This document shows, piece after piece, positions 41,705 to 63,525 of a stretch of 64,000 nt of DNA. The stretch comes from Thermoanaerobaculia bacterium (GTDB lineage Bacteria; Acidobacteriota; Thermoanaerobaculia; UBA5066). The position numbers and the translations under genes are program-made. Under the pieces are notes generated by a model, which searched no databases, was not told the origin of the DNA, and worked only from the letters and a program-made list of their open reading frames with translations. Location of the stretch: the NCBI GenBank assembly GCA_963821225.1, contig CAWGCY010000007.1, positions 158,429 through 222,428 of the forward strand, in the 5' to 3' direction. Positions within the stretch are counted from its first letter, which is position 1; every line of letters begins with the position of its first letter.

Positions 41705-41742
41705 ACCGCGTTTGGACCGAATGTCCCCTGTCCCGGACGCCA

Positions 41743-46770: not shown

Positions 46771-47733
46771 ATGCCCGTGGAAGTGCGCCCCGCGACGTCT
46801 GCCGACCGGCCGGCTCTTCTCGCCCTCTTCCGCGCGGCGTTCCGGGCCGAAGCCTCTCCGGAAGATTGGGCCTGGAAATACGACCGTTGCCCGCACGCCG
46901 CGGTCTCCGTCGGCGCATTCGAAGGAGAGAAAGCGATCGGCCATTTCGGCGGCCTCGGGACGCGCTACCGCGGACGCGAAGGCGATCTCCCCGGGGTCTC
47001 CGCGGTGGACGTGATGACCGCGCCGTCGTCTCGCGCGCTCGGGCGCCGCACTCTGTTTCGGCGCATCGGCTCGGAGTTCTTCGACCGGAACGGAGCGGCG
47101 GGCGCTCCGTTCGTCCTCGGGTTCCCGAACGACCGGCACCTCCTGGCCGGGGAACGCATTCTCGGGTACGTCTCCGTCGAGCCCGCCGCGGAATGGACGC
47201 GCCGTGCCGGCGGGCCGGGCCTCCTCTCGCGGCTCCGGCGGCGCCGGCTGCGGCACCGCCGCGGCTCGTCGGTCTCTTCGGCCCACGACGCGCTCGCCGA
47301 AGAGCTCCACGCGCGCGCGGGCTGGCGCACCGACCGCTCGCGCGCCACGCTCGACTGGCGCTTCGCGCGCCCGGGCGTCTCGTACGAGGTGCACGAGCTC
47401 CTCGACGGACGCGGCCGTTCGACGGCGTATGCCGCCGTCCGGGTCGTCGCCGGTCGCGCCCTCCTCGTCGATCTCCAGGCCGCCGACGAAGAAGGCGGCG
47501 CCGTGCCGGAGCTTCTCGACGCGATCGCTGCGACGCTCGCCGGAACCGGGGCGCAGACACTCGTCTTGCGGGCGGGATCGGCGAGCGGTCTCGCCGCCCG
47601 CGCCGCCGAGCTCGGCTTCTCGCGATCGGACACCGACACCCATTTCACCGTGCGCCCGTTCCATCCCGCGTTCGACCTCGGGACGGCCGCGGCCGCATTC
47701 GACTACCGGTTCCTCGATCACGACGTCTTCTGA
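46771..47733 (+). CDS. GNAT-family acyl/acetyltransferase (two-domain)
   Basis: The N-terminal pattern VEVRPATSADRPALLALFRAAF ... VMTAPSSRALGRRTLFRRI is typical of the GNAT A-motif region. The 3' end overlaps the next gene convergently by 16 nt. Confidence 0.6.
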   Translation: MPVEVRPATSADRPALLALFRAAFRAEASPEDWAWKYDRCPHAAVSVGAFEGEKAIGHFGGLGTRYRGREGDLPGVSAVDVMTAPSSRALGRRTLFRRIGSEFFDRNGAAGAPFVLGFPNDRHLLAGERILGYVSVEPAAEWTRRAGGPGLLSRLRRRRLRHRRGSSVSSAHDALAEELHARAGWRTDRSRATLDWRFARPGVSYEVHELLDGRGRSTAYAAVRVVAGRALLVDLQAADEEGGAVPELLDAIAATLAGTGAQTLVLRAGSASGLAARAAELGFSRSDTDTHFTVRPFHPAFDLGTAAAAFDYRFLDHDVF

Positions 47734-48722
47734 GAGAAAACGCGCTCGAGCTCGTCGAGAACTCTCTCGATCGTGAACGTACCGGCGACCTCGAGACCGC
47801 GGGCGCGCCGCGCCGCCCACAATGCCGGATCGTCCAGAAGGCGGGCCGCCTCCCGCGCCGTCGCCGCGGAATCGCCGACCGGCACGCGGGAGACGGCGTC
47901 AGGGGGCAGAACGGCGAGAGACGGAATGTCGGAGATCACCACGGGCACCCCCGCCGCCATCGCCTCGAGCGGAGGGAGCCCGAATCCTTCAGCATGGGTC
48001 GAGGAGAAGAGTAGAAGGTCGAGCCGGTGATACCAGTTCGCCATCTCGTCCACGGAAATGGCGTGGGCGTAGAGGTCGCACGGCCCCATCGCCTTTTCGG
48101 CATCGAGCATCGGCATCAGGCTCGCGCGATGCAGGATCACCGCGCGCCCGGCCTCGCGAAGGCGCGCGACGGCCCGGAGCGACGACGGAACGCCTTTGAT
48201 CGAAAACTCGAAGGGGCCCACGATGCCCACGACCGGAGGCACGCGCGGAGCCGGCCGGAACTCGAGAGGGCGGAACTTCTCCGCTCGGAGAGTCTGTGGC
48301 AGGACGTGAAACGGGCCGGGAAACCGGCCTTCGAACAGATCTTTCAGATGCGACGAGATGAGCAGCTTCGGGACAGGCGTCCGATACGCCTCTTCGATCT
48401 CGTCCTGCCGGTGAAAGCAATTCGGGTACAGCGCCTCGTAGCCCTGGCTGAAGTGAACGATTTTCGGCGCGCGTCGCGCGCGGACGGTCGGGACGACGGT
48501 CGGAAACCACGTGGCGACGTGGACTTCCGCTTCGGGGAGAGTGGCCGCGTCGAAACCCGGAACTTCGATCACCGGAACACGGACGTCTATCCAGTCGTGG
48601 CGCGCGTCCTTCGTCACGACTACGACTTCGTGTCCTCTCGACGCCAGCCCCTCCGCGTGCTCGACGATGACCTTGACGCCGCCCGACATCCCGAGCGACT
48701 CGAGAACGTAGACGATCCTCAT
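47718..48722 (-). CDS. GT4-family glycosyltransferase
   Basis: ATG 48722 overlaps the wzt stop (ATGA). Motifs MRIVYVLESLGMSGGVKV and STHAEGFGLPPLEAMAAGVPVV. Confidence 0.8.
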   Translation of the reverse strand: MRIVYVLESLGMSGGVKVIVEHAEGLASRGHEVVVVTKDARHDWIDVRVPVIEVPGFDAATLPEAEVHVATWFPTVVPTVRARRAPKIVHFSQGYEALYPNCFHRQDEIEEAYRTPVPKLLISSHLKDLFEGRFPGPFHVLPQTLRAEKFRPLEFRPAPRVPPVVGIVGPFEFSIKGVPSSLRAVARLREAGRAVILHRASLMPMLDAEKAMGPCDLYAHAISVDEMANWYHRLDLLLFSSTHAEGFGLPPLEAMAAGVPVVISDIPSLAVLPPDAVSRVPVGDSAATAREAARLLDDPALWAARRARGLEVAGTFTIERVLDELERVFSQKTS

Positions 48723-49933
48723 CCGGGGCCGTCGCCGCCCACGGGAAGCGACATCCAGGTCAGGGGCGGACTCATCAGGCCGTTCCGCCACGTGTCGGAC
48801 TCGACGCGGAACGTGCGGCTCCGCGAGTCGTACAAGGCAAGCGCCTTCTCGTCACCCAGGAACGCGGTCGCGACGAACTCTCCCTTCCCGAGAGGCAGCT
48901 GTTCGAGAGCGATGCGGACCCGGTACGTCTTCCGCCCGCCGAACGGCCCCGCGCCGTCGAGGCGCGAGTCGGCCGTGAAGCACACCACGTTGTCGAGCGT
49001 CGCGACGCCGAGATGCACCTGCATGAGCCGTTCGGGAACGTCGCCTTCGAACGAAACCTCGGCGGCCCACGGCTCGTTCGGACGGAACGCGTCCGTCTCG
49101 CGCCCCTCGGTGCCGACGAGCGAGAAGCCGGTGATGCGTCCGTGCGAATCCGCGGGCGGGCGGGCGTGGTGGTCCACGGCGACGTCCTTCCGGGCGAGGA
49201 AACGCTCGTACTCGAGGACGACGCTCTGCGCGTCGCCCATGGCCTCCACGCGGCCCGCGTTCAGCCACAGCGCGCGGTCGCAGAGCGTCGACACGTAGTA
49301 CATGGCGTGGCTGCAGAAGAAGATCGTCTTGCCCGAGGCCTTGAGCTCGAAAATGCGGTCGACGCACTTCTTCTGGAAGCGGCCGTCGCCCACGGCGAGC
49401 GCCTCGTCGAGCAGGATCACGTCGGGCAGGACGGCCGTGGCGACCGAGAACGCGAGCCTCATCTGCATGCCCGACGAGTACGTCTTGACGGGCCGGTCGA
49501 AGAAGTCGCCGAGTTCGGCGAACGCCTCGATCTCCGGCAATGCCGCCGAAACCTCCTCGCGCGAGAGCCCCGCGAGAGCCGCCTGCAGGACCACGTTGCG
49601 CCGGCCCGTGTCGTCCGGATGGAAGGCCGTGCCGAGCTCGAGGATCGACGCCACACGCCCCGGCAGGCTCACGCTGCCGGACGTCGCGGTCGTGGTTCCG
49701 GCGAGGATCTTGAAGAGCGTGCTCTTGCCCGACCCGTTCTCGCCGATGACGCCGAGGACCGAGCCCTTGGCGATCCCGCCCGAGACGTCGTCGAGGGCCC
49801 GCACCTCGGCGTGCCGGGGGCGGCCCGTCAACGCCTCGAAGAAGCGGTCCCGAGGAGCCGGGTAAAGCCGGTAGACCTTGCTCAGGTTGGAGAAGGAGTA
49901 GGAAAGGGGGGATTCGGCCATCGCCGCTCCCAT
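48719..49933 (-). CDS. wzt: Polysaccharide ABC exporter ATP-binding protein with C-terminal glycan-terminus-binding-type extension (Wzt/TagH-like)
   Basis: Walker A GENGSGKST, signature YSSGMQMRLAF, Walker B ILLDEALAVGD. A roughly 150-aa C-terminal beta-rich extension resembles that of Wzt. The alternative ATG at 49921 is equally possible. Confidence 0.85.
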   Translation of the reverse strand: MGAAMAESPLSYSFSNLSKVYRLYPAPRDRFFEALTGRPRHAEVRALDDVSGGIAKGSVLGVIGENGSGKSTLFKILAGTTTATSGSVSLPGRVASILELGTAFHPDDTGRRNVVLQAALAGLSREEVSAALPEIEAFAELGDFFDRPVKTYSSGMQMRLAFSVATAVLPDVILLDEALAVGDGRFQKKCVDRIFELKASGKTIFFCSHAMYYVSTLCDRALWLNAGRVEAMGDAQSVVLEYERFLARKDVAVDHHARPPADSHGRITGFSLVGTEGRETDAFRPNEPWAAEVSFEGDVPERLMQVHLGVATLDNVVCFTADSRLDGAGPFGGRKTYRVRIALEQLPLGKGEFVATAFLGDEKALALYDSRSRTFRVESDTWRNGLMSPPLTWMSLPVGGDGPG

Positions 49934-49972
49934 GTTGCCCGAAGGCTTCCCGGCGCGGAAGCTCTCCGCCCG

Positions 49973-50007
49973 AAAAAAGAAGGCCCGGGCGCGTGGCCCG
50001 GGCCTTC
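49973..50007 (-). terminator. Rho-independent terminator after the 1685-aa gene
   Basis: On the minus strand, GAAGGCCCGGGC-loop-GCCCGGGCCTTC (12-bp stem) is followed by TTTTTT. Confidence 0.7.
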
Positions 50008-50028
50008 AAACAGATGCGGTTTCCGAGG

Positions 50029-53000
50029 TCAGGGGGTCGGCTGGGCCTTCACGAACGTGGCGTCGCCCGACATGTTGTCGACGATCGTCGCGTAGCCACC
50101 CACGGTCACGTCGGCGTCGATGTTGTCGACGATGACCGAGAGGCGGCTCAGGTCGCCGGAGAGGCCGCCGAAGAGCGTGTCGTTGCTCACCTGCGAGACG
50201 CCGTCGACGTAGACCGGGAGGTCGCGGAGGTTCGTGCCCTCCTGCGAGTACACGTGGACGTTGACCCACTTGCCGGTCGCGCCCGAGATCGCAAAGAGCG
50301 CGAGATTGGTCCGGTAGGCCTCCGTCGAGACGAGGCCCGTCAGGACGAGGCGCTTGTTCTCGCCCGTCTTCGAAGCGGCATCCGCGTCGGTGAAGCCCGG
50401 CACCTGAAGGCCCACGGGGCCGGCCGGCTGGTCGTTGTACGTGACGCCGAGGACGAGCAGCGGCTCCTGGTTCGGGTCGCCGGCCGCCGGGAAGACGTCG
50501 ATGTACGCGGACTGGTAGGCCGTGGTGTCGGACACGGTGAACCCGAAGCTCTCCAGCCACTTCTTCGGGAAGTCGTCGGCCCAGAGCGTCTCGCCGGGGA
50601 GCAGCGTCACGTCGCTCTGCAGGCCCGCGCGGCTCTTGCAAACGGTCCCCTCGCAGGGAACGAAGGAGTAGGAGATCGACGCCTTTCGGCTCGTGCTGGA
50701 CGGGTTCGTGATGTAGAAGCGGCTCCGCCACACCGTGTTGTTCGCGCCCTGCAGGCGAACGATCCCGGGGATGCGGTACGTGGTCGAGGGCCGGTCGGAC
50801 GCGGTCACGACGATGGGGTCCGTCGAGCGGAGGTCGATGACGGTGGCGTAGGGAAACACCGCGCCGCCGGAGAGCACCGCCACCCTGACGCTGAACGCGT
50901 CGAGCGGGAACGGGAATCCCACGCCGCTCGGCGGGGCCGCGGAGAGCGGGCGTGTGAGCTGCGCGACGCCGTAGGGCGGCACGTCCACGTTCACCTGGCC
51001 GAAGGTGGCGGCGCCGCTTTGATCCAGGAACGTGAGCCGCGCGTGGCTCCAGTCCCTCGTGACGTTCATGAGGCCGATGTTCGTGTAAGCCGTGTCGTCG
51101 TCGCGCAGGCCGACGAGGTACTGCTGCGAGGGGGCGGCCTGGGGCGTCAGGCCGCTCGAGGGCTGCGTCGAGGGGACGGACAGCCCGAACGTGCCCTTCG
51201 TGGGGTCGCCGATGTTGAACGTGCGCGCCGTGAGAACGGGCGGCACGGGGGCGGAGTCGCCGCGCACGAGAAGGGCGCCGGAGCTTCCGAGCGGCTGCCC
51301 GAAAAAGGCCAGGACGTTCGGCGACGAGATGCTCTGCTGCGCGCCGAGGTTGATCGTCCTCCAATCCAGGTTGGCCGGATCGACGGGGCTTCCTCCGTTG
51401 AGGAACGCGAGCGAATACGTCGCCGAACGGGTCGGGTCGGGGTTGAAGATCGTGACGTCGGTCTGCCAGAGCGTGCCCGCGAGCGAGCCCTGCAGGTACG
51501 CCATGCCCGCGACGAACCACTTCGGCGGCTCGGGCGGCGGCAGGACGGTGAAGGTCTGCGACGTCGACCAGCTCGTCGAGCCGATCGTCACGGTGAGAGT
51601 CGTCGTGAACGTGACGGGGCTCGAACCGCTGACGTTGAACGCGTGTGTCGGATTCTTCCCGGTCCCCGTGAAGCCGTCGCCGAAGTCCCACGCGTAGAGG
51701 TTGGCGGTGTCCGTGGCCACGAAGCTCAGGTCCTTCCCGGACTCCACCTGCGTCGACGTGAACGCCGAACCGTCCGCGTAGCGCGCCGTGAAGAGGCCCG
51801 AGGGGGCCGCGACGATGAACCGGTAGGTCTTGCTGCACTGCGAGTTCGCGTTCAATTTGACCGTTGCGTTGAACGTGCCGGCCGACGCGTACGTGTACCA
51901 GATCGGATTGCCGCTCCCGGTGCCGCCGTCTCCGAACGTCCAGTCCGCGCCGGTCATGCCCGTACCGGAAGCCAGGAAGGCGAGATTCTGTCCGGTGGCC
52001 ACTCCGAAGTACTGGATCCCCAGCGCCACGGCGGGCGGGATCGGAATGAAGCCGTTGTCCCGGTCGAGGATCGTGTAGTTCACGTCCAGGCAAGCCGGAG
52101 GCGGACCGGCCGGATTGCTTATCTGGACCGTGGCGGCGCCGCTGGCCTGAGCGCTGGCGCCGTCGGTGGCGGTGCATCCCGCATTGATGGTCGTCGGCGT
52201 GGACGAAGAGGTCTGGTAAGTCGAATTGGTTTGCCCGGGAATGGTGAAGCTCGAGCTCGGCGACCGCCACTGATAAGTGTAGGAGCCCGTCCCGCCCGAC
52301 GCATTGCACGAGAACGTCACGGTCTGGTTGACGAGGGCGGGGTTCGGACTGACCGAGACGTTCACGGAGACACCCCCGGCCGGGGGGCCGCCTCCGCCTC
52401 CGGTGAACGTCGCCGTGGCGCTCCCGCTGCTCTGCGCGGGAATCGGCTGGCTATCCGAGACGAAGCAGTAGGCCTGGAGGTTTCCCGCGGAGGTGGACGT
52501 CGTCGCGTAGGTCCGCTGGGTTGCCCCGGGAACCGTGAATGACAGAGGTGAACGCCACTGGTAGAAATAGGGCGTGAGGCCGCCGGTCACGTTGCACGAA
52601 AACGTCACGTTCTGACCCGCAGTCTGGCTCGTGGGGTTCACCGACACGTTCACGACGAGCGGGACCACGGACACCACGGTCACCGTGAAGGGAGTGATGC
52701 CGGCCGGATCCGGCCAGAACGCAGTCTGGCCGCCCGAGTAGCTCACCCTGATCTTGAGGGCGTAGTTCCCCGCGGTTCCCGGGATCGGAATCGTCGCCGT
52801 CCTGGGCGGCGAGCCGGACGGCGAAGAAGGGTCGCTCATCGCCACCCAGGGCTGGTAGCTGTCCGCGCAGGGAGTAACGCAGAGGCTGTACTCGTAGCTC
52901 CCTATGATCGCCGCGCCGCGCTGCGAGCTGTTCTGCACGGTCAGGCTCTGGTTAATGACCGCCGTGATCGGGCCGGTCGCGCTGCCGTTCACGGTGAAGG

Positions 53001-55086
53001 CCGGCGCGAAGTCGGTGACGGTGTACGTCCCCATCGCGGCCGTGCCGGCGTAGTCCGGCGTGGCGTAGCCGTTCGCGTACGTCGCCGTGAGCCAGTAGTA
53101 GTGCTGGCCCTTTGTATCGAGCGTCGGAACGCACGTCGGTCCCGTACCCGTCGGGCCCGAGCAGAGCCCGGCCACGGTCAGGGCGTTCGGCGCGTCGCCA
53201 AACCACCACTTGAAGCCCGTGGCCGTCGGATAGCCGTCGGAGGCGCTCACGAGAGGCTGGCCGGACAGCACCTGCGTCGTCTGGAGCTTCGCCGCCGGGA
53301 CCTTCCAGTTCAACGTGAACAGCCTCGCGCCCGCGCTGCCAAGAGCGTTATTCGCCTCGAACGCGAACGTAATCGCCTTCGAGGAACCTGTCGCCGGCAC
53401 GGCGACGAAGTCGGGTCCCCCGAACGCGCCGTTCGTCGTGACCGACCTCCAGCAGCCCGCACCGCTATTGGGATCAGTTCCGCCCACCCGATAGTCGCAG
53501 GGGCCGACGACCGTGATCTGGGCCGGCGGGGCCGCAGGGTTCCCGAACGCCCCGTTGTCGGCCGCCTTGATGCGCGGAGACGCGACCGCGCCGTTGTCCT
53601 CGGACGCGGCGCCCGCGTGGAAATCGAAGTCGAAGTTCCATCCGAATCCCGTCAGGGGCTGGTTCACCGGCAACGGGTTGATGGCCGGAGTGATCGTGAC
53701 CCGCTCGCCCAGGAACACGGTGTCGCCGCTGTTGAGCGGAGTGCCCGCCTGGTTCACGGCGCTCATGGCAGCGACTGCGGGCGCGTTCTGAGAGACGCAG
53801 GCCATCGGGATCACGTAGGCCGTCGTCGTCGTGGGCAGGTACGCGTAGACGTTGCTGGTGCCGGCGACCCCGAAGCCCGACATCTGCCCCCGGAGGGCGA
53901 ACCCCGAGCCGCTCACGGGGAAGGAGCCCGGAGGCACGCTCGCCCACCCGGCAGCCGTCGTCGAGTAGAGGAGGAACTGGATCGTCGGCGCCGTGCTCTT
54001 CGCCCACATGAGGACGAAGAGGTCGCCGTTGTTCTCGACGAGCGCGGAGGCCACCCCCACGCTCGCCCACGCTTCGCCCGCCTGCGACGGGACGCGCCAG
54101 ACCGGGCCGGCCGAGACCTTCGCGAGACTGCTCGTGACGTAGAGGAGCCCGTAGCTCGGCGAGTTCTCTCCCGCCTGCGCGTTGAGCTCCACGAGGACCC
54201 AGAGAATCGTCGGATCGGCCGGATCGACGGCCGCGGAGTAAGCCGAGATCGCGCGGCCGCCGAAGTCGACGCTCGTGATCGTCGTCTGCGGAAAAGAGGT
54301 CGTGATGTTTCCGACGGGCCCCGGATTGGACGCGTCGACGACCCGAATGGAGCCGCCGGACTGGTAGAGGATGTAGTTCCCGGCCAGGGACCCGAGGCCT
54401 CCGCCCGGCCAGCCGGTGTTTTCGGAGCTCATGTTCTGCTGCGCGAACGTCGCGGGCAGGGTCGTGACGTCGGCCGCGGCGACCTGAGTCGAAGTGATCT
54501 CGTACGCGATGTACCGGCTCCCGACGTGCTGGACGAGCGTGGAACCTGCCCGTCTCGGGGAGAACGAGCCGCGGTTGAGGAAGCCGTAACCGCTGGCGCC
54601 ACCCACGATCGTGTACCAGCCGTCCCCCGGTCCACCCAGCGATTGCACCCCACGCTGCCCGTCGTCCGAGACGCCTATCGAGTAGACGTCACTCTGCCCG
54701 TCGCCGCCGAGCGTGATGGCGTCCGCGCCGAAGCGGTTGTCACGGTAGTCCAGTGCGGTCGGGTTGACCGGGTTCGAGAGGTCGAGCACCGAGTACCCGT
54801 ACGACTCCTGCATGAGGAGCCGGCGCGGGCCGCCGGCGCCGCTCCGGTAGAGCTCGAGGCTGTTGTTGTATCCGGGACTCAGGTACAAGGTCCGCGGGAC
54901 GCCCGGCGGATTCGGCTCGAACGAAGCGGGCGAGCCCGAAAGCGTGCACTGGGCCTCGAGGCGCGCCGGCAGCCCGGCCAGGAGCCCGAGGAGTGCCGTG
55001 CCCGCCATGGCTGTTGCGGCGCGGCGGAAACGATCGTTGCGGCGAGCGGGGGGCACGGGGGTCACAGGGGTCATCGTGGTCCTCAT
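50029..55086 (-). CDS. Giant exported multidomain surface protein (1685 aa): propeller-like N-terminal region, PKD/Ig-like modules, two tandem C-terminal ~250-aa modules
   Basis: Signal-like N-terminus RRAATAMAGTALLGLLAGLPARLEAQ. LVIVD-like strands are present (YSVLDLSNPVNP, IRVVDASNPGP), as are PKD motifs (WTFGDGGTGSG, WDFGDGFTGTGKNPTHAF). Two Ig-like repeats each contain TFSCN.(S/T)GG..(Y/F).YQWRSP. Confidence 0.85.
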   Translation of the reverse strand: MRTTMTPVTPVPPARRNDRFRRAATAMAGTALLGLLAGLPARLEAQCTLSGSPASFEPNPPGVPRTLYLSPGYNNSLELYRSGAGGPRRLLMQESYGYSVLDLSNPVNPTALDYRDNRFGADAITLGGDGQSDVYSIGVSDDGQRGVQSLGGPGDGWYTIVGGASGYGFLNRGSFSPRRAGSTLVQHVGSRYIAYEITSTQVAAADVTTLPATFAQQNMSSENTGWPGGGLGSLAGNYILYQSGGSIRVVDASNPGPVGNITTSFPQTTITSVDFGGRAISAYSAAVDPADPTILWVLVELNAQAGENSPSYGLLYVTSSLAKVSAGPVWRVPSQAGEAWASVGVASALVENNGDLFVLMWAKSTAPTIQFLLYSTTAAGWASVPPGSFPVSGSGFALRGQMSGFGVAGTSNVYAYLPTTTTAYVIPMACVSQNAPAVAAMSAVNQAGTPLNSGDTVFLGERVTITPAINPLPVNQPLTGFGWNFDFDFHAGAASEDNGAVASPRIKAADNGAFGNPAAPPAQITVVGPCDYRVGGTDPNSGAGCWRSVTTNGAFGGPDFVAVPATGSSKAITFAFEANNALGSAGARLFTLNWKVPAAKLQTTQVLSGQPLVSASDGYPTATGFKWWFGDAPNALTVAGLCSGPTGTGPTCVPTLDTKGQHYYWLTATYANGYATPDYAGTAAMGTYTVTDFAPAFTVNGSATGPITAVINQSLTVQNSSQRGAAIIGSYEYSLCVTPCADSYQPWVAMSDPSSPSGSPPRTATIPIPGTAGNYALKIRVSYSGGQTAFWPDPAGITPFTVTVVSVVPLVVNVSVNPTSQTAGQNVTFSCNVTGGLTPYFYQWRSPLSFTVPGATQRTYATTSTSAGNLQAYCFVSDSQPIPAQSSGSATATFTGGGGGPPAGGVSVNVSVSPNPALVNQTVTFSCNASGGTGSYTYQWRSPSSSFTIPGQTNSTYQTSSSTPTTINAGCTATDGASAQASGAATVQISNPAGPPPACLDVNYTILDRDNGFIPIPPAVALGIQYFGVATGQNLAFLASGTGMTGADWTFGDGGTGSGNPIWYTYASAGTFNATVKLNANSQCSKTYRFIVAAPSGLFTARYADGSAFTSTQVESGKDLSFVATDTANLYAWDFGDGFTGTGKNPTHAFNVSGSSPVTFTTTLTVTIGSTSWSTSQTFTVLPPPEPPKWFVAGMAYLQGSLAGTLWQTDVTIFNPDPTRSATYSLAFLNGGSPVDPANLDWRTINLGAQQSISSPNVLAFFGQPLGSSGALLVRGDSAPVPPVLTARTFNIGDPTKGTFGLSVPSTQPSSGLTPQAAPSQQYLVGLRDDDTAYTNIGLMNVTRDWSHARLTFLDQSGAATFGQVNVDVPPYGVAQLTRPLSAAPPSGVGFPFPLDAFSVRVAVLSGGAVFPYATVIDLRSTDPIVVTASDRPSTTYRIPGIVRLQGANNTVWRSRFYITNPSSTSRKASISYSFVPCEGTVCKSRAGLQSDVTLLPGETLWADDFPKKWLESFGFTVSDTTAYQSAYIDVFPAAGDPNQEPLLVLGVTYNDQPAGPVGLQVPGFTDADAASKTGENKRLVLTGLVSTEAYRTNLALFAISGATGKWVNVHVYSQEGTNLRDLPVYVDGVSQVSNDTLFGGLSGDLSRLSVIVDNIDADVTVGGYATIVDNMSGDATFVKAQPTP
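50032..51522 (-). repeat. Tandem duplicated C-terminal protein module (M1 50785-51522, M2 50032-50784)
   Basis: Both copies begin (V/I)xG(M/I)xxLQGxxxTxW(Q/R)(T/S) ... NP. Both end in (P/G)YAT(V/I)(I/V)D...(T/G)D(P/A)..V. Confidence 0.6.
52105..52656 (-). repeat. Two tandem ~90-aa Ig-like repeats inside the giant gene
   Basis: VNVSVNPTSQTAGQNVTFSCNVTGGLTPYFYQWRSP... versus VNVSVSPNPALVNQTVTFSCNASGGTGSYTYQWRSP... Confidence 0.75.
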
Positions 55087-55134
55087 ATGGGGGCGCGAAT
55101 AACCCTTCCAGGTTGAAGGGGCGATCCGGACCTG

Positions 55135-55163
55135 ATGCTATCTCCGGCTGCTCGCTATGTCCA
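55135..55163 (-). promoter_or_regulatory. Sigma-70-like promoter candidate for the giant gene
   Basis: On the minus strand: TGGACA, 17 nt, TAGCAT, about 50 nt upstream of ATG 55086. Confidence 0.25.
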
Positions 55164-55245
55164 GCCGGTAACGTCGTTTACGGGCAAGGCACGAGGGGCC
55201 GGATCGAAGTGTTTCGGGGGCGGGGCATCTTTCAGGGGTGGGCGG

Positions 55246-55280
55246 AAAAAGAAAAAGGCGGGCGGCCGAAGCCGCCCGCC
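55246..55280 (-). terminator. Strong Rho-independent terminator after the 595-aa gene
   Basis: On the minus strand, GGCGGGCGGC-TTCG-GCCGCCCGCC (perfect 10-bp GC stem) is followed by TTTTTCTTTTT. Confidence 0.8.
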
Positions 55281-55302
55281 CAGGAACACCGGGAAAGAAA
55301 CC

Positions 55303-57090
55303 TTACTTGAGCCTTGGGAGGCCTGCGCTGCGAAGGAAGAACTGGCCGCCCAGTCCGTCAACCTGCGTTCCAATCTCCGGCCTGTTCGGCTGGCACTGGA
55401 ACTGCTCGTTCAGGTTGGCCGCAGCGTGACCGACGCTGATGAACGCGCCGGGAGCGGTGTGCTGCACACCGACCCAGGCCTGGTTGTAGAGACCGTCTGT
55501 CTCGTCGAAGCCGAAGTAGCCGGGTCCGCGGAACGTCATGTCGACCCAGCCGCCCTTGAACGCAGCCGGGTTCCAGCCCGCTCCGGCGGTCGTCGCCGCC
55601 AGCAGGTCGATGCGCTGCGACTCGAGGAAGATGTAGTTCGGGGACTGCGTGCCGGGCTGCTGACCCGACGGGCCGGGCGGAACGCCGACGCCACCGAACA
55701 GGTTCTCGTCGTTGTCGTACGTGAGGATCACGACCTGATGCAGGTCGTCAAAGAGACCGCTGCCGTCGGAACCGGCGTTGCCCGTCTTGGGGGTGGGGTC
55801 CGCCCACTCGCAGAGGTTGACCGCGTCCCAGTCGCCATCGTTTGGACTGAAGTACACGTCGCTACGCCAAACGGTGATCCAGGACTGGAGGCCGTTGGCC
55901 TGGTCGGCCAGGTAGCGGAAGCCGTAACGGTCGCCGAGGGGCTCGCGGCCGTCGCCGGGGAACTGGAATGCCGGGGGAACTCCCGGGTTCGCGCAACCGT
56001 TTGACGTGTTGACCTCGGCGAAGCACGTGCTGGCGAAGTCGACGTACTTGCCGAAGAAGGTCTTCGTCAGCGGGAACGTGAAGCCGAGGCGCACGTCGAA
56101 CTCGATGGCGACAGCCGGGTCGCCCGAGACGTTGCCGCCCTGCGTGGCGGTGTCGACGAAGAACACGTCGCCGATCAGGACGTTCGGCGTGTACGTGACT
56201 GCGCAGGGAGCCGTCGAGGTGCAGGGGAAATCAGGGTAGGCAGCCTGGGTCCAGCCGGTCGTCGCGATCGCGTCCTTGTCGTAGAAATCCCCCTGGTCGG
56301 GGAAGAAGTTCGTGCAGTAGTTCACGACGTCGATCGTGAGGTAGCCGGACAGGGCGCCACCCAGTGGGTTGGTGGCGGACCAGCCGCAAGCCGGGTTGTC
56401 CTTGTCGAGGATGTTCGCGCCCGAGGAGGACGTGAACGACGTGACGTCGCCGGACTCGTCGAGCGAGTTCCAGACGGTGCCGCGGAACGCCGCACCGATG
56501 GCGTCGACCGTGGTGAGGTTGTACTGCGAGATCGACGTGAGGACGTCGGTGCCCAGGACGCCGGCCGCATCGGGGTGCGAGAAGCGGATGAACTGGGTCT
56601 GGCCGAAGCCGACGCTCGGCTTGTAGTTCGCGGTCGGCAGGCCCGGATCAAGCAGGCCGCATGGGTCGATGGGGTACGACTTCGGAGGCGCGCCCTTCGA
56701 ATTCGTGCACGCCGCAAACTGCGCCGGGGGCAGGAGCAGGTCGCACTGCGGGTAGTTCGGGCTCAGCCTGCCGTTCATGATGTCGCGCATCGAGAACGAC
56801 ACGACGTCCTTCCCGGTGAGGGGAAGGTTGAAGTCGATGACGGCCTTTGAATACTTGTTCCAGACCGTGACGTGCGCGATGACGCCAGGGGTGGAGACGT
56901 TGACGATCGACACGAGGGTGTCCGTGCCGCTGGCACCGATGGGCGCGCCCGTGGCACCGTTCAGTGAGACCTTCCAGTACGGTACGAGCAGCGTGGCCGC
57001 CGGCACGTTGTCATACGCGCAGGTGACCGCATAGCCCGTGCCCGCAACCGCGAGCAGCACCAGGGCAACGAGGACGGAAAACTTTTTCAT
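55303..57090 (-). CDS. Secreted Cys-rich 595-aa protein of unknown family
   Basis: ATG 57090 with a consensus SD (AGGAGTAAAA-ATG). Signal peptide MKKFSVLVALVLLAVAGTGYA. The gene has its own promoter-like element and terminator. At least 16 Cys are spread along the chain, and basic residues are few. Confidence 0.8.
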   Translation of the reverse strand: MKKFSVLVALVLLAVAGTGYAVTCAYDNVPAATLLVPYWKVSLNGATGAPIGASGTDTLVSIVNVSTPGVIAHVTVWNKYSKAVIDFNLPLTGKDVVSFSMRDIMNGRLSPNYPQCDLLLPPAQFAACTNSKGAPPKSYPIDPCGLLDPGLPTANYKPSVGFGQTQFIRFSHPDAAGVLGTDVLTSISQYNLTTVDAIGAAFRGTVWNSLDESGDVTSFTSSSGANILDKDNPACGWSATNPLGGALSGYLTIDVVNYCTNFFPDQGDFYDKDAIATTGWTQAAYPDFPCTSTAPCAVTYTPNVLIGDVFFVDTATQGGNVSGDPAVAIEFDVRLGFTFPLTKTFFGKYVDFASTCFAEVNTSNGCANPGVPPAFQFPGDGREPLGDRYGFRYLADQANGLQSWITVWRSDVYFSPNDGDWDAVNLCEWADPTPKTGNAGSDGSGLFDDLHQVVILTYDNDENLFGGVGVPPGPSGQQPGTQSPNYIFLESQRIDLLAATTAGAGWNPAAFKGGWVDMTFRGPGYFGFDETDGLYNQAWVGVQHTAPGAFISVGHAAANLNEQFQCQPNRPEIGTQVDGLGGQFFLRSAGLPRLK

Positions 57091-57289
57091 TTTTACTCCT
57101 ACCGACAATTGCGATGGTTCAGTTAGATCCGAGTGAGTTATTTCAACAGAGTTCTTCGAAAGGGTAATCCTGCCGCGCGCGATATCGAATCACCTCCCGA
57201 AATAAATTTAGAAACCAGATGGCGTCGCCATTGCCATTTCGGCGAAAACAGGCAGATTGAGAGACGAAAGTCTCCGGAACATTAGGGAG

Positions 57290-57318
57290 ACGATAGGCAC
57301 AAAATTCCACCGTGTCAA
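57290..57318 (-). promoter_or_regulatory. Sigma-70-like promoter candidate for the 595-aa gene (predicts a ~190-nt leader)
   Basis: On the minus strand: TTGACA (perfect -35), 17 nt, TATCGT. It lies in an AT-rich intergenic island. Confidence 0.45.
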
Positions 57319-57384
57319 GACCATTCCTCAAAAATATGGTGGAGGGGCATATCTGCAGGGAAAGTGTCCGGGGGCGGCCGGACC

Positions 57385-59103
57385 TCACTTCGAGACGCCG
57401 AGAAACACCCGCAAACCCCCTGCCCGCGTCTCGTCGCCCGTGAGGTACTGGTACATGAGGGCCACGTCCAGATGCCCGTCACCGTCGAAGTCGGCCATCC
57501 GGAGCGCCGTCGGGTGGTTGATGAAGGTCGGCTCCCGGTCGGCCGCCAGCTCCTCGAACTCTCCGTCGGGCATCTGGAAGAAGACCCTCATGCGATGGGT
57601 GCTCTCGTCGCACCACACGACGTCGTCGAGGCCGTCTCCGTTCAGGTCACCGGCGGTGATGGCGGGGGACCCGGCGTCGAACTGCAGCGTCTTCACGATG
57701 CGCTTCGCCGCCATCTTTCCGTCGTCGGCGCGGTAATAGACCGTGATGCCCTGCCCGTCGATCTTCGGCGTCGCGCCGAACGGCGAACGCTTGAACCAGG
57801 CCGCGAACGCCGCGGGCCGGCCGCGGTAGGTGCCCGCGGCCGATCCCATGTGCTGGGCCCAGACCTCCACGGCGCCGACGCCCGCGTAGCGAAACTCCTC
57901 GAGCTTCGGGTCGAACTCGTAGAGATGCGAGGCGCCCATCGTGTACCGGCAGGCCGACGAATAGAACGGCAGTCCGTCTTTCGGGTCCTTCGGCACGACG
58001 AGCGTGATCGCGTAGCCGAAACAGGCCCCTTCGAGGCCCTTGTGCACCTCGCGGAAACGCGCCCCTTCGTTCAGGAACCCCCGGACGTCGTAACCCTTCA
58101 CGTAGTCGCTGCCCTTTTCGGCCCGCGGCTTGCCGCCGGTCAGCAGCGCCTCGGGGTCGTCGGAGATGACGAGGAGGTCCTGCCGGCCGTCGCCGTTCAG
58201 GTCTCCTGCGGCGATCGCACGCGTCGACATCTGCCGCGGAAGACCCCACGTCTCGATCTTGAACGTGCCCCCGCCCTTGTTGATCGCGACGGCTGGTCCG
58301 GCGCCATGTCCCCCGAAGACGATGTCGAGCTTGCCGTCGCCGTCCATGTCCGCGATGGTGGCGGCCCCGTAGGCCGCTTGAACCTTGTCGGCGTTCTCGA
58401 ACGTGAGGTCGGCGAGGCGCCAGCGCCACTTGTCGTCCCCGGTGTCGCTCTTGTCGAGCCGGTAGACCCGGATGAAGTTGCCCGTGAGCCGGGCCGGCGG
58501 CGCGACGATCTGGGGGCGGCCCTGCCCCAGGAGGTCGCCCACGTCGAAGTTCTCGCGCCACATGCCCGAACGCGGCAAGCCCTCGGACATCTCTTCGAAA
58601 TGAAACGTGCCCTTCCAGATCTTCGGCGTCACCACCGCGGCTTCGCTCGCGGGAAGCTCGACGATCGGCTTGAGGTCGTCGGGACCCTGCAAGCCGGCGC
58701 TCCTCGGGTCGGGCTTCGGCCGGTCCGGGGGAGCGAGGACGTAGTACGCCTTCTCGTCCTGGCGCACGATGGGGAGTCCCGGCCCGACCACGACGGCGTT
58801 GAAGAGGCGCCCGTCCTTTTCGTAGTAGAGGATCTGCTTCCTGATCTTCAGGAGCTTTCTCCCGGTCTCGGGATCCACGATCGTCTCGGTCTCGGGCTCG
58901 ACGAACTCTCCTTCCGGCACCGGCGCCGGAGCCTGCAGGCCGAGGAGCTCCTTCGCTCGCTCGACCGAGCGTTCGGTTCGCTTCGCGTCTTCGGCCTTCG
59001 ATTCCGCCGCGGTCTTCGCGGCGGGAGCCGACGGCCCCGAGGACGAGCAGCCGATCGCGCCAGCGAGCACGGCCACCGAAAATACGGAGAGGGACGCTTT
59101 CAC
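57385..59103 (-). CDS. FG-GAP/VCBS repeat lipoprotein (integrin-alpha-like beta-propeller)
   Basis: GTG 59103 preceded by AGGAG. Lipobox-like VLAGAIGCSS. Ca-binding-type repeats DMDGDGKLDIV, GDLNGDGRQDLLV, GDLNGDGLDDVVW and ADFDGDGHLDVAL. Confidence 0.8.
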   Translation of the reverse strand: MKASLSVFSVAVLAGAIGCSSSGPSAPAAKTAAESKAEDAKRTERSVERAKELLGLQAPAPVPEGEFVEPETETIVDPETGRKLLKIRKQILYYEKDGRLFNAVVVGPGLPIVRQDEKAYYVLAPPDRPKPDPRSAGLQGPDDLKPIVELPASEAAVVTPKIWKGTFHFEEMSEGLPRSGMWRENFDVGDLLGQGRPQIVAPPARLTGNFIRVYRLDKSDTGDDKWRWRLADLTFENADKVQAAYGAATIADMDGDGKLDIVFGGHGAGPAVAINKGGGTFKIETWGLPRQMSTRAIAAGDLNGDGRQDLLVISDDPEALLTGGKPRAEKGSDYVKGYDVRGFLNEGARFREVHKGLEGACFGYAITLVVPKDPKDGLPFYSSACRYTMGASHLYEFDPKLEEFRYAGVGAVEVWAQHMGSAAGTYRGRPAAFAAWFKRSPFGATPKIDGQGITVYYRADDGKMAAKRIVKTLQFDAGSPAITAGDLNGDGLDDVVWCDESTHRMRVFFQMPDGEFEELAADREPTFINHPTALRMADFDGDGHLDVALMYQYLTGDETRAGGLRVFLGVSK

Positions 59104-59128
59104 GGAAAACTCCTAGCAGCGCACGGAA

Positions 59129-59152
59129 CCTTCGGGCCTTCGGCCTTCGGGC
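59129..59152. repeat. Short tandem CCTTCGG(G) x3 between wzm and the FG-GAP gene
   Basis: CCTTCGGGCCTTCGGCCTTCGGGC is read directly. It can form small GC hairpins. Confidence 0.7.
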
Positions 59153-59161
59153 GATGAAGAG

Positions 59162-59929
59162 TCAGAGAAGGTCCGCGAACGACGGGCGGCACCGCCGGAA
59201 CAGCCGGACTCCGAAGAAGCCTACCACGGCCAGGACGGCCGACCACGCGGCGAGGCGCCCGAACGGCGGGAGCGGCGCCCCGAACAGCGCGGCGCGGAAG
59301 AGCGCGAGGAGATCTCGCAGCGGGTTGAACGCGAGGAAGCGCGCGGCGAAGCCGGGGATCATCGTTTCGGGATAGATGATGGGCGAGAGGTAGAACGCGA
59401 TCATGAGAAAAGGGGGGAGAAGCTGCGCGAGGTCGCGGAAGAACACGTTCATCGAAGCGAGAACGAGCGCCGGCCCGACGAGGAGGAGACACTCGAACGC
59501 GAAGGCGGCGACGAGAAGGCCGGCGTTCACGGAGCCGCGGCCGGTCACGAGGAGGAAGCCGGTGAGAAGGCTCAGCCCGATCGCCTGGACGACGAGCGCG
59601 GCTCCGACGGCGGAGGCCGTCAGGAGATGAATCGGGAAGCGCAGCTTCTTGACGAGGTGCGCCTGGTCGCTGACCGAAACCGTGGCCCTCATGACCGCCT
59701 CCTGTATCCCGAGCCACGGGAGAAGGCCCGCCAGCAGGAACTCCACGTAACCGCCCCGGAAGCCGGCCGGAGGCGTCATCTTGATGACGAAGGCGAATAC
59801 GAACGCATTGAGCGCACAGAAGACAGCGGGGTTCAGGACCGCCCACAGGGGGCCCGCGAAGCTGCCCCCATAGCGGGCGGCAAGGTCTCTCCGGAGCAGC
59901 TCCGAAAGTAAGAAGAGCTTGTTCTTCAA
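59162..59929 (-). CDS. wzm: ABC-2 type polysaccharide exporter permease (Wzm/TagG-like)
   Basis: TTG 59929 (MKNKLFLLSELLRRDLAARYGGSFAGPLWAVLNP...) and six hydrophobic helices. The long ORF extension to 60637 is rejected because it overlaps the XRE gene. Confidence 0.8.
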   Translation of the reverse strand: MKNKLFLLSELLRRDLAARYGGSFAGPLWAVLNPAVFCALNAFVFAFVIKMTPPAGFRGGYVEFLLAGLLPWLGIQEAVMRATVSVSDQAHLVKKLRFPIHLLTASAVGAALVVQAIGLSLLTGFLLVTGRGSVNAGLLVAAFAFECLLLVGPALVLASMNVFFRDLAQLLPPFLMIAFYLSPIIYPETMIPGFAARFLAFNPLRDLLALFRAALFGAPLPPFGRLAAWSAVLAVVGFFGVRLFRRCRPSFADLL

Positions 59930-59964
59930 CGAGGTAGCCGTTCTCCAACCCTGTCCGAAACCGC

Positions 59965-59992
59965 TTGACACACGGGCGCGAGAGGCTATCTT
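59965..59992 (+). promoter_or_regulatory. Sigma-70-like promoter candidate for the XRE regulator (very short leader)
   Basis: TTGACA, 16 nt, TATCTT. ATG 60008 lies about 15 nt after the -10. Confidence 0.4.
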
Positions 59993-60007
59993 AGATGATG
60001 TAGGCTC

Positions 60008-60427
60008 ATGACTGCTGTGCCGCGTGCGTCCCAGATCCTCCTGGTGGGGCAGAAGATTCGTCAGATCCGGAAGAGCCGACATCTGACTCAGGCGGAGCTC
60101 GCCTCCCGGATCGGCGTGACGCAGTCCGACCTGTCGCGCATGGAAAACGGTGAGTACAAGGTCGGGCTCGACACTCTCTTCAGGATCCTTCAGGTGTTCG
60201 AGCTGTCCATGAGTCACTTCTTCGAGGAGCCTTCGGCCGAGGCCGGGCCCGCCGACGGGCAGGCGGCCGGCGCGCTGTCGGCTCCATTCGACGACGAGCC
60301 GCTCGCGCGCGACTGGTCGGCACTGCCGGAGGACTCGCGCCGCGAAGTCCGCGAGTTCGTCGCGTTCAAGAGGATGCAGGCCGAAAAGGCGCGGCCCGAC
60401 GGCGACGGCGAGGGCGGAGATGACTGA
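60008..60427 (+). CDS. XRE-family helix-turn-helix transcriptional regulator
   Basis: The HTH_3 pattern is GQKIRQIRKSRHLTQAELASRIGVTQSDLSRMENGE. Confidence 0.8.
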   Translation: MTAVPRASQILLVGQKIRQIRKSRHLTQAELASRIGVTQSDLSRMENGEYKVGLDTLFRILQVFELSMSHFFEEPSAEAGPADGQAAGALSAPFDDEPLARDWSALPEDSRREVREFVAFKRMQAEKARPDGDGEGGDD

Positions 60428-61325
60428 GGTCCTCCGCGCCGCGGCCGAGGCCGCCCGCCAGGAAGCGCTCGCCCTCCTCGAGAAGGGTGAGTTTCCCGCC
60501 GCGCTTTCGGCATACGACCGGGCCCTCGAGGCCGCACGCGCGACGGACGATCCCGCCTTCGGGGACTGGATGTACGTGTGCCGCGCCGCCGCCGCGATCG
60601 AGGCGGGTCCCGCCGACGACGTCCTCGTCGAGCTCAAGCGCGTCCTGCTCCGGTCGGCGAGTCCCGCGACGGCCGTGCGCGCCGCGCACGCGTCGGCGCG
60701 CGTCTACGAGCTGCGCCGCGACTTCGAGAAGGCGCTCTTCTACAACCGCATCGCCCGCCGCCACGCGGAGACGCTCGGCGACGAGGCGATCCTCGCTCAC
60801 TGCGACAACCAGTCGGGCATGCTCCTGACGGTCGACAGCCGCTTCGAGGAAGCTGCGGCGGTCTACCGCCACGCGCTCGAGAGGACGGAGGGACGCGAGG
60901 GCGTGTCCTCCATCTTCCGTTCCGTGTGGCGCGACAACCTCGGCTATTGCCTCATCGCCCTCGACCGCGTTCCCGAGGGCCTCGCCCTCGTGCACGAGGC
61001 GTTCGGGGCGCTCGAGAGCGAAGGGGCCCGGAGCTACACGGTCTACCCCCTCCTCGATCTCTGCTTCGGCTACCTCAAGTGCGACCGCCACGCCGAAGCC
61101 CGTTTCTTCGGCGAGTCGGGCCTCGAGCGCGTGCCCCTGTGCGGGGAGCCCGCCGTGGAGAAGAGCTTCCTCTACCTCCTCGGCGAGACGTGCCATCTCG
61201 CGGGCGACGACGGCGACGCGCGCGGCTACTTCGACCGGCTCGCAAACCTCTACCCGGAATTCAAGAACCTGAGGGCGTACCTCGAGGTCTTCGACTTCCG
61301 CAACGTGATCAACCTTCGGAGCTGA
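60420..61325 (+). CDS. TPR-like all-helical repeat protein
   Basis: The ATG overlaps the XRE gene end by 8 nt. Repeated A/L/Y-patterned helices are present (FPAALSAYDRALEAA, FEKALFYNRIARRHAE, FEEAAAVYRHALE, DARGYFDRLANLYPE). Confidence 0.6.
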   Translation: MTEVLRAAAEAARQEALALLEKGEFPAALSAYDRALEAARATDDPAFGDWMYVCRAAAAIEAGPADDVLVELKRVLLRSASPATAVRAAHASARVYELRRDFEKALFYNRIARRHAETLGDEAILAHCDNQSGMLLTVDSRFEEAAAVYRHALERTEGREGVSSIFRSVWRDNLGYCLIALDRVPEGLALVHEAFGALESEGARSYTVYPLLDLCFGYLKCDRHAEARFFGESGLERVPLCGEPAVEKSFLYLLGETCHLAGDDGDARGYFDRLANLYPEFKNLRAYLEVFDFRNVINLRS

Positions 61326-61327
61326 CC

Positions 61328-62428: not shown

Positions 62429-63436
62429 TCAGAGTCTCGACGGGAGGTCCGCGCGCGGATCCCTGTCGTAGAGCGCGGCGAACTTCGAAGCGAGCGCGCG
62501 ACCTTCCTCCGTGGGCCGCCCCGGCATCGCGATCGAAACGCGGTAGGTGTGGTCCCCGTCCGCCCCGCGCCCGCTCCTCACCCCGTAGCCCTTGAGCCGG
62601 AAACGCTGGCCTCCGGCCGTCCCGGGCGGGATGCGCGCCCGCACCGGCCCGTGAATCGTCGGAACGTCGATCTCCGCGCCGAGATACGCCTCGGATACGG
62701 TCACCGGCACCTCGGCGAGGATGTCGTCGCCCTCGCGCGAGAAGTACGGGTGCGGAACGACGGTGAGGGCGACATAAAGATCGCCCTTCTCGCTGCGTCC
62801 CTTGCCCGGGACGCGCACCTTGGATCCGGTCGAGACGCCCGCGGGAATACGCACGGTGAGCCGCTCCTTCGACACGACCTCTCCCGCCCCGTGGCACGTG
62901 GGACACGCCGAGGTCCCCACCCGGCCCGACCCGCCGCATCGCGCGCAGCGGCGCGGGTATCGCACCTGCAGCGTGATCGTTCCGCCGAGAACGGCGTCGC
63001 GGAACGAAATCGTGAGCTCGGCGGCCGCGTCGTCGTCCTCTTCCTCGAAGCCGCGGACGCCTCCCGAGCGGGTGCCCGAGAAGAGGTCGGAAAAGAGGTC
63101 GCTGAAATCGCCCGACCAGCGGAAGCTCGAGGGCCCGCCGGCCGTCCCTCCGAACGGGCTGCCTCCGGCGAAGGGTCCGGCGCCGGAGGGCCGCGGCGCG
63201 CCGGCTTCGGGCGGGCCTCCGGTGTCCCCGGTCATGTCGAAGTGCTTCCGGCGCTTCGGGTCCTTGAGGATCTCGTAGGCCGCGGCGATCTCCTGGAACT
63301 TTCTCTTCGCGGCCGCGTCGGAGACGTTCACGTCCGGGTGGTGCTTGCGCGCAAGGCGGCGGTAGGCCTTCTTGATCTCGGCCTCGCTCGCCTTGCGATC
63401 GACACCAAGGACCTCGTAGGGATCCACCGTGGCCAT
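62429..63436 (-). CDS. DnaJ-family co-chaperone paralogue with half-size zinc-finger region
   Basis: J domain [31 protein letters not shown] and a G/F-rich linker. Only two CxxCxGxG repeats are present ([16 protein letters not shown]). The DnaJ C-terminal beta domains follow. Confidence 0.85.
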
Positions 63437-63525
63437 GCGCGCCGCTACGATACCCGACAGGCCCGGCGGCCCGAAAGGGACGTGGAACGCGGTACGATCG
63501 CGGGGCATCTCATGGCGGGGGCCGC

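Follow-up and report, generated by a model that had tools for sequence, protein, structure and literature searches.

A split wzm/wzt glycan-exporter locus in Thermoanaerobaculia, best read as the junction of a wzm-led envelope-protein cassette and a wzt-led glycan-assembly block

The window analysed here is a 64-kb stretch of DNA (G+C 68%) from a Thermoanaerobaculia bacterium (contig CAWGCY010000007.1), in which wzm and wzt, the permease and ATPase genes of a predicted ATP-binding cassette (ABC) glycan exporter, are separated by 9228 nt containing three genes for exported proteins and two conserved intrinsic terminators. Open reading frames (ORFs) were picked with the guidance of third-codon-position G+C content (GC3) and then scanned against Pfam. 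An initial annotation of this DNA had described the pair as split by ~9 kb with three exported-protein genes between, and both the identities and the coordinates held, all five genes lying on the minus strand. The genes of the locus and its immediate neighbours are:

59162..59929, minus strand: wzm, ABC-2 type glycan-exporter permease, 255 amino acids (aa), TTG start (Pfam ABC2_membrane, 49.1 bits)
57385..59103, minus strand: gene for a predicted FG-GAP/VCBS seven-bladed beta-propeller lipoprotein, 572 aa (FG-GAP_3, 105.7 bits over 4 stretches)
55303..57090, minus strand: gene for a 595-aa secreted protein of an unannotated family, apparently monocistronic (signal peptide, no Pfam or NCBIfam match)
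50029..55086, minus strand: gene for a 1685-aa exported PKD/Ig-domain protein (matches to PKD_4, 52.9 bits, PKD, 39.4 bits, and Ig_3, 38.7 bits, all over their cutoffs)
48719..49933, minus strand: wzt, ABC ATPase, 404 aa, with a putative Wzt_C-type domain at its C-terminus (ABC_tran, 70.1 bits)
47718..48791, minus strand: family 4 glycosyltransferase (GT4), first gene of the glycosyltransferase (GT) block that travels with wzt (Glyco_trans_1_4, 1.4e-15)
60008..60427, plus strand: XRE-family helix-turn-helix (HTH) regulator, divergent from wzm (HTH_3, 1e-14)
60420-61325, plus strand: TPR protein following the XRE regulator (TPR matches)
62429-63508, minus strand: DnaJ/CbpA-like gene beyond the HTH and TPR genes

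Over the permease, 207 of the 211 positions of the ABC2_membrane profile were aligned (PF01061; E 6.5e-13, cutoff 26.9 bits), and a crude Kyte-Doolittle scan gave five hydrophobic segments. The closest solved structures, found by sequence search of the PDB, were A. aeolicus Wzm (2.6e-17) and TarG (4.3e-17). For the ATPase, in whose translation the motifs GENGSGKST, YSSGMQMRL and ILLDEAL are visible, they were A. aeolicus Wzt (2e-58 with the single sequence) followed by TarH and TagH. A profile built from 21 Wzt orthologues improved the A. aeolicus Wzt match to 8.8e-76, its alignment to the full-length protein reaching residue 297 only. The Wzt_C domain (PF14524) scored 25.5 bits in the window protein, under the cutoff of 30.4, and was matched in 21 of 21 Wzt orthologues at E<=0.01 (best 4.6e-11). 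In NCBIfam, the best matches of Wzm were the galactan Wzm/RfbD and KpsM models, both under the equivalog cutoff; the galactan Wzm and Wzt models were among the best matches of the pair, yet far under their cutoffs. As far as sequence comparison can tell, these results confirmed both wzm and wzt as genuine ABC exporter genes of the O-antigen/teichoic-acid type. A GldA/GldF- or NosFY-type ABC-2 system was also considered and rejected, the Wzt/TagH matches being better by more than 40 orders of magnitude. The window was also swept with phmmer, all ORFs of at least 70 aa being covered, and no second Wzm-like or ABC-ATPase ORF was returned; wzm and wzt encode the sole ABC-2 permease and the sole ABC ATPase found there.

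Both subunits best matched the A. aeolicus Wzm-Wzt (PDB 6M96/7K2T/8DKU), E. coli O9a-type and TarGH/TagGH transporters. As in the Wzm-Wzt and TarGH systems, the genes stand beside glycosyltransferases and methyltransferases, and a Wzt_C-type domain is predicted in the ATPase. In those systems the two genes adjoin or overlap, the canonical wzm-wzt operon being co-transcribed; here 9.2 kb separate them, and the interval contains two conserved terminators. The candidate transcription signals of the locus are:

59965-59992: promoter-like site by the divergent XRE regulator
57334..57352, strand not assigned: inverted repeat ATATG-N9-CATAT by the -35 element of the 595-aa gene, candidate operator
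57290..57318, minus strand: sigma-70-like promoter of the 595-aa gene, TTGACA-17-TATCGT
57180..57199, minus strand: near-invariant box CGGGAGGTGATTCGATATCG in the 5' untranslated region (5'UTR) of the 595-aa gene, Shine-Dalgarno-like, with no start codon behind it
55256..55281, minus strand: terminator after the 595-aa gene, 11-bp G+C stem, TTCG loop, T-run
55135..55163, minus strand: sigma-70-like site upstream of the PKD gene, TGGACA-17-TAGCAT
49979..50007, minus strand: terminator after the PKD gene, 12-bp stem, T-run

In 14 kb, three sigma-70-like sites were found where 0.5 would be expected. The region ahead of the 595-aa gene stands out for its conservation in every relative examined. 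At the site preceding the 595-aa gene, the -35 CTTGAC was near-invariant in 17 of 18 sequences and the -10 region was conserved, in both of the synteny groups described below. The inverted repeat by this -35 element occurs just once in the window, where chance would give 0.01, and its half-sites are kept in most relatives. The leader is ~190 nt long and carries, ~109 nt upstream of the 595-aa ATG, the near-invariant 5'UTR box CGGGAGGTGATTCG-nTATCG, which we take to be a possible STAB-SD-like mRNA stabiliser; the gene also has a strong Shine-Dalgarno sequence. The conserved elements at 57180-57352 may be an operator plus a STAB-SD-like stabiliser. RNAalifold found no conserved secondary structure in this leader, only conserved sequence boxes, and an Rfam scan of positions 47000-61500 returned no family, only sub-threshold matches on the terminator hairpins.

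The terminator after the 595-aa gene is kept in nearly all relatives, including those whose wzt lies elsewhere. Just downstream of it, at ~55225-55250 on the minus strand, we noted a motif, GAAAGAT-N(12-14)-CACT, which recurs in most group-A relatives and one group-B relative and is unlike sigma-70 and sigma-54 promoters. The CTGGACA upstream of the PKD gene is conserved in closer relatives only, and the terminator that follows that gene, ending ~37 nt ahead of the wzt start, is kept in most relatives of both groups. The initial view that the 595-aa and PKD genes have promoter-like elements and strong terminators of their own was borne out in this way. Because of the conserved terminators, the region is predicted to comprise several transcription units in place of a single operon: wzm would be transcribed together with the lipoprotein gene, the 595-aa and PKD genes each as a unit of its own, and wzt together with GT4 and the genes beyond.

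The first of the three intervening genes starts 58 nt downstream of wzm and follows it directly in every Thermoanaerobaculia-type locus; in one of these (L139) the called FG-GAP gene overlaps wzm by 11 nt. Its signal peptide, ...VLAGAIGC|SSS, ends in AIGC, read as a lipobox, and at least 90% of 34 homologues share Cys19, so that by both marks the product is predicted to be a bacterial lipoprotein. The AlphaFold2 (AF2) model, a seven-bladed propeller, had a mean predicted local distance difference test (pLDDT) score of 82.7, exceeding 90 in the propeller core. Foldseek matched it to CRTAC1 (~1e-10) and integrin alpha-v (5e-8), and also to aldos-2-ulose dehydratase and KICSTOR subunits; these matches to the model are generic propellers carrying no glycan-handling specificity. 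Two NCBIfam hints, 'surface polysaccharide biosynthesis protein' (21 against 60 bits) and 'beta propeller lectin' (20 against 200 bits), were far under their cutoffs.

The 595-aa protein has a classical signal peptide, MKKFSVLVALVLLAVAGTGYA, and no Pfam or NCBIfam match. Its family counts 323 detectable homologues and, among the matches listed, 120 of 120 had neither a name nor a Pfam domain. It had been called a Cys-rich secreted protein; secretion is supported, and 'Cys-rich' proved somewhat overstated, as it has 12 cysteines (2%), 6 of them invariant in the family. The AF2 model, built with 35 homologues, was mediocre (pLDDT 58.9, predicted TM-score 0.69), and no Foldseek match with E<0.03 was found for it in PDB or BFVD. 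Stand-alone paralogues occur in two loci (L113, 9824-11686; L135, 9878-11661), away from wzm, wzt and GT genes. The L135 copy shares its genome with a cassette copy (L126) and is split into three frames, which may reflect a pseudogene or a long-read indel error.

The 1685-aa protein carries an N-terminal signal peptide (RFRR...LEA|QC), is acidic and contains 20% Ser+Thr. It is encoded by the fastest-evolving gene of the block, with 27-72% identity to its relatives against 69-88% for Wzt, a pattern of divergence that fits an exposed surface protein. BLASTP detected no domain shared between it and the other envelope proteins at E<=0.01. In one relative (L032, 843-9929) two tandem PKD-type genes precede wzt, and in another (L139, 12115-19528, group B) an extra 650-aa gene with no Pfam match lies between the 595-aa homologue and a 1218-aa PKD protein.

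On the other side, the 3' end of wzt and the GT4 ORF share 73 nt (48719-48791, minus strand), and they share 49 nt in the relative L002 (11140-11188). Overlap or abutment of the two genes was seen in relatives, where tblastn alignments reach back to the first residue of the GT4 ORF; this makes the overlap seem real, and the overlap suggests that the two genes may be translationally coupled. Beyond GT4 lie further GT2/GT4 enzymes, a GNAT protein, a PIG-L deacetylase, methyltransferases and multi-transmembrane (multi-TM) proteins. The initial annotation had counted three methyltransferases, of which two were confirmed as methyltransferase-domain ORFs (Methyltransf_11 at 30308-30970; Methyltransf_24 at 34135-35214), and three GT-C-like membrane proteins, one of which gave a sub-threshold PMT_2 match (34931-36493; 24.9 bits against a cutoff of 26.1) while the other two gave no GT-C match. 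It had also seen no Wzx/Wzy-type genes, in agreement with our scan: no ORF scanned matched a Wzx or Wzy family in Pfam, two of the multi-TM ORFs matching nothing at all. Nor was any OPX/PCP-type or ligase-type protein seen among the scanned ORFs. The two methyltransferases are candidate capping enzymes of the glycan. At the far end of the block is a gene for a 934-aa BNR/sortilin-type protein (37540-40344, minus strand), syntenic in relatives. It is partly overlapped by a stop-to-stop ORF (36494-38902) with a BNR-like phmmer match, whose segment 36494-37537 (minus strand) has no Pfam match. A PEGA-domain ORF (40496-42178) lies near the BNR gene, and the two encode further exported proteins within the glycan cluster.

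To place this arrangement among relatives, contigs from one genome per species were scanned with Wzt, Wzm and the 595-aa family as seeds, and the 138 loci obtained were mapped by tblastn and phmmer. The full order DnaJ, TPR (opposite strand), wzm, FG-GAP, 595-aa, PKD, wzt, GT4, GNAT, GT2 was found in 18 species-level metagenome-assembled genomes (MAGs), labelled Thermoanaerobaculia or Acidobacteriota (group A), and ~19 more loci were consistent with it and truncated at contig ends. This order holds down to 52% identity for Wzm and 69% for Wzt; in one locus (L118) the distance from the PKD gene to wzt is 2 kb longer. The flanks are syntenic as well, with DnaJ on one side and the GNAT, GT2, PIG-L, PEGA and BNR genes on the other. 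Conservation across 18 species indicates that the arrangement is not a recent insertion. An insertion of the mobile-element type was likewise rejected, the composition showing no anomaly and the arrangement being kept across species. In six assemblies of the MFD series (L002, L057, L117, L129, L130 and L137) the cassette genes are split into many short frames, most likely long-read indel errors and not real pseudogenes, which complicates ORF-based synteny.

A second set of 7-10 MAGs (group B) has DnaJ, TPR, wzm, FG-GAP, 595-aa and PKD genes followed by housekeeping genes, namely a spermidine-synthase-like gene, PhoH, CorC and Era. In four of them (JAKLER, CAZLQX, CAZWRQ and JAGOBQ) a separate contig carried wzt, still joined to the GT4, GNAT, GT2 and PIG-L genes; GT4 adjoins wzt in L027, L028, L031 and L039. 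Radical-SAM and PFK genes stand before wzt in this group, a radical-SAM/SPASM gene preceding it in L027, the one locus examined upstream. Neither these two genes nor PhoH, CorC or Era occur within the window. By contig coordinates, the wzm/trio and wzt loci of CAZLQX are at least ~66 kb apart. No local partner was found within 10 kb in this group, either as a Wzm near wzt (L027, L028, L030, L031) or as an ABC ATPase near wzm (L122, L124, L128, L138).

The gene wzm itself was never apart from the three exported-protein genes in ~45 genomes, over a range of Wzm identity from 91% to 49%. TPR and DnaJ genes accompany it in essentially all relatives, and the HTH-TPR-hypothetical-DnaJ neighbourhood is also present in L139. 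At 40% Wzm identity, an Acidobacteriota MAG (L071) has TPR, wzm, a DUF1573 gene and FG-GAP, with no wzt and no 595-aa protein. Among homologues from other lineages with 34% identity or less (Desulfobulbia, Nitrospirota, Firmicutes, Bacteroidota and others), wzt follows wzm directly in 24 out of 24 (L042, L072-L094). These were the only relatives with an adjacent pair, so the question of whether the trio always lies between the two genes, raised in the initial annotation, did not end in evidence of a simple insertion. Bracketing by both wzm and wzt, in turn, is not the conserved feature, since 7-10 relatives have wzt and the GT genes on another contig. A neighbour-joining (NJ) tree of the FG-GAP proteins rooted on L071 interleaved the two arrangements, with L138 (group B) basal and L118 (group A) next, and this interleaving implies that the PKD/wzt junction was probably broken or formed more than once, the direction of events not being set by the tree. 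The earlier idea of cargo genes inserted into an exporter operon is not one that can be demonstrated here: the tree sets no direction, and the conserved terminators show that there is no single operon.

Exporter genes that are not adjacent have precedents. In mycobacteria, Rv3781 (wzt) and Rv3783 (wzm) flank glfT1; the single gene between that pair codes for a cytoplasmic glycosyltransferase belonging to the same pathway, in contrast to the exported structural proteins found here. In Synechocystis sp. PCC 6803, the same-strand genes slr0977 (wzm) and slr0982 (wzt) have three hypothetical genes between them and sugar-nucleotide and methyltransferase genes after wzt (PMC3769361). The initial annotation was not aware of a description of the arrangement; for the split as such, this report supplies one. 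Neither lineage-wide conservation nor internal terminators were reported for Synechocystis, and the likeness of slr0978/0980/0981 to the trio is drawn here from gene position. A different comparison is offered by the slg loci of Geobacillus stearothermophilus and G. tepidamans, where an ABC-dependent, methyl-capped glycan is made and its target, the S-layer gene sgsE or sgtA, is monocistronic and independently transcribed nearby; the cluster also encodes a TPR protein, WsaA (PMC2943079). In the slg loci, however, wzm and wzt overlap, the target gene lies outside the pair and the O-oligosaccharyltransferase WsaB is present, whereas no oligosaccharyl:protein transferase was identified among the scanned ORFs; the slg hosts are Gram-positive, unlike the diderm Acidobacteriota. 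Our literature search returned no S-layer report for Thermoanaerobaculia, the single paper that mentions both being about an unrelated topic, and none on Wzm/Wzt in Acidobacteria.

The invariant unit is thus wzm together with the three exported-protein genes and the divergent HTH and TPR genes, and wzt belongs to the GT block. The locus is best read as the junction of two abutting modules and not as one interrupted operon. The first would comprise wzm and the FG-GAP gene (probably co-transcribed), the 595-aa and PKD/Ig genes, which would be expressed independently and probably strongly, and the divergent XRE HTH and TPR genes. The second would be a wzt-led glycan-assembly module, coupled to GT4 and supplying the GT2/GT4, GNAT, PIG-L deacetylase, methyltransferase and multi-TM proteins. 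Made from separate transcription units, Wzm and Wzt would assemble into one O-antigen/teichoic-acid-type ABC exporter that takes a glycan, lipid-linked and probably capped at its end, through the inner membrane. The three exported proteins would be abundant envelope or surface components, and their genes would stay by wzm because the proteins are the destination of the glycan, as acceptors or as an anchoring scaffold. We infer this link between glycan and proteins from the persistent linkage to wzm and from the analogy with the Geobacillus slg loci, and we give the whole reading, two modules with the trio proteins as glycan destination, a probability of about 40%.

Several observations weigh against that reading. 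In group B the trio lies on one contig and the glycan block on another, so that the two can be physically parted. In the three exported proteins, counts of N-glycosylation sequons were not above the shuffled expectation; no Wzy_C-, PglL-, WsaB-, PglB- or WaaL-type transferase or ligase gave a Pfam match in the scanned ORFs; and the multi-TM 'GT-C-like' proteins have no relatives in the PDB by sequence. No sigma-70-like site was found near the wzt start, ~37 nt past the strong terminator, so that wzt would rely on read-through or on an unrecognised promoter. Part of the order conservation over the 25 kb of group-A synteny could be phylogenetic inertia, and a second wzm/wzt pair elsewhere in these genomes is possible, the partner search having covered the window and the 10-kb surroundings. 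The same side of the balance holds the stand-alone 595-aa paralogues, which sit among kinases, CarD and peptidases (L113, L135), and the Synechocystis intervening genes, whose deletion gave no adherence or flocculation phenotype (PMC3769361). These last two points would be expected if the juxtaposition were historical, with autonomous envelope genes beside an orphan wzm, Wzm and Wzt working in trans and no link to the glycan. The promoter-like site and conserved terminator owned by each of the 595-aa and PKD genes, the unlinking of wzt and the GT block from wzm and the trio in 7-10 relatives, and the synteny of the flanks, as if the whole neighbourhood were simply stable, agree with such a history. 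It sits poorly with the constancy of the wzm-trio linkage through ~45 genomes (91% to 49% Wzm identity), with the recurrence of the wzm...FG-GAP pairing at 40% identity in L071 and with an FG-GAP gene that overlaps or abuts wzm; moreover, the adjacency to wzt seen in the 24 other-lineage homologues was lost and that to the trio was kept, which looks selected and not neutral. We consider a purely historical juxtaposition somewhat doubtful.

The tightness of the FG-GAP/wzm coupling (the 58-nt gap, or the 11-nt overlap in L139) also raises the idea that Wzm and the lipoprotein form the core of an accessory machinery, in which the FG-GAP lipoprotein, and possibly the other two proteins, would be a periplasmic or outer-membrane part of the export route and would receive or chaperone the glycan as it leaves Wzm, or carry it over the envelope. 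L071, which lacks the 595-aa protein, has kept no other pairing; AF2 models the propeller with confidence; and the steps after flipping are unaccounted for, with no OPX/PCP- or ligase-type protein in the scanned ORFs. The structural matches of the propeller are nevertheless generic (CRTAC1, integrin, KICSTOR), the NCBIfam hints lie far under their cutoffs, and the 595-aa and PKD proteins look like abundant structural proteins and not like stoichiometric parts of a machine. No Wzm/Wzt or TarGH system is known to us to have an accessory subunit of this kind, which also counts against this idea, and we regard it as unlikely. Lower still we place the case that Wzm and Wzt are not partners at all, each pairing with an unseen subunit, or Wzm having been recruited to a trio-related task. 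They do belong to different transcription units with two strong terminators between, and to different contigs in group B, and the searches covered loci and not whole genomes, leaving room for other pairs. Yet no alternative partner was present within 10 kb at any examined locus, both genes co-occur in the four group-B MAGs named above, the nearest solved relatives of both belong to the same transporter families, and an ABC-2 permease needs an ATPase to work. For these reasons the partnership of Wzm and Wzt is the simplest reading, not a proven one, and their working with other subunits appears quite improbable.

A bolder reading can also be drawn, which we regard as unlikely: Wzm, uncoupled from its ATPase gene and genetically locked to envelope proteins, would form with them a surface-coat assembly unit not recognised before, in which the propeller lipoprotein would take the glycan from Wzm and deliver it onto two very abundant surface proteins, the 595-aa protein as a new fold family and the hypervariable PKD giant, building a glycoprotein layer. 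To our knowledge, no glycoprotein layer has been described in this Gram-negative phylum.

Elsewhere in the window, just beyond the glycan block, are a GAF-sigma-54 activator and two large SpoIIE/PP2C phosphatases; both phosphatases contain GAF domains, and one of them has a PDZ domain as well:

12144-13970, 19537-21099 and 22549-26043, minus strand: SpoIIE/PP2C phosphatases and GAF-sigma-54 activator

The gene at 4125-7316 (plus strand) encodes a formate dehydrogenase alpha subunit with a Tat signal (RRTFLKAG) and an in-frame TGA at 4812-4814, in QARV*HGPTVASL...FGRGAMTN, which we take to be a classical selenocysteine site; FdhB-like, cytochrome b and FdhE genes come next, at 7300-9742.

The split of wzm from wzt is itself not new, given Synechocystis (PMC3769361) and the mycobacteria. 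What is new is a lineage-wide, wzm-led cassette of envelope proteins with internal terminators, a recurrent breakpoint exactly at PKD/wzt, and a family of secreted proteins, unannotated and apparently abundant, whose promoter and leader are deeply conserved. The locus is a testable candidate for how the surface is built in an uncultured, widespread soil class of Acidobacteriota, and it offers a candidate major envelope family (more than 320 members, no annotation, no recognisable fold), the promoter and leader of that family and a possible Wzm-interacting lipoprotein. In genome annotation, ABC-dependent glycan export is usually recognised from wzm and wzt being neighbours; here, adjacency appears to have yielded to a stable linkage of wzm with exported proteins, a warning for annotation based on adjacency. 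If the link between glycan and proteins is false, the locus would still be a clean example of a split ABC exporter; if it is true, it would extend the logic of S-layer-type protein glycosylation to a diderm phylum.

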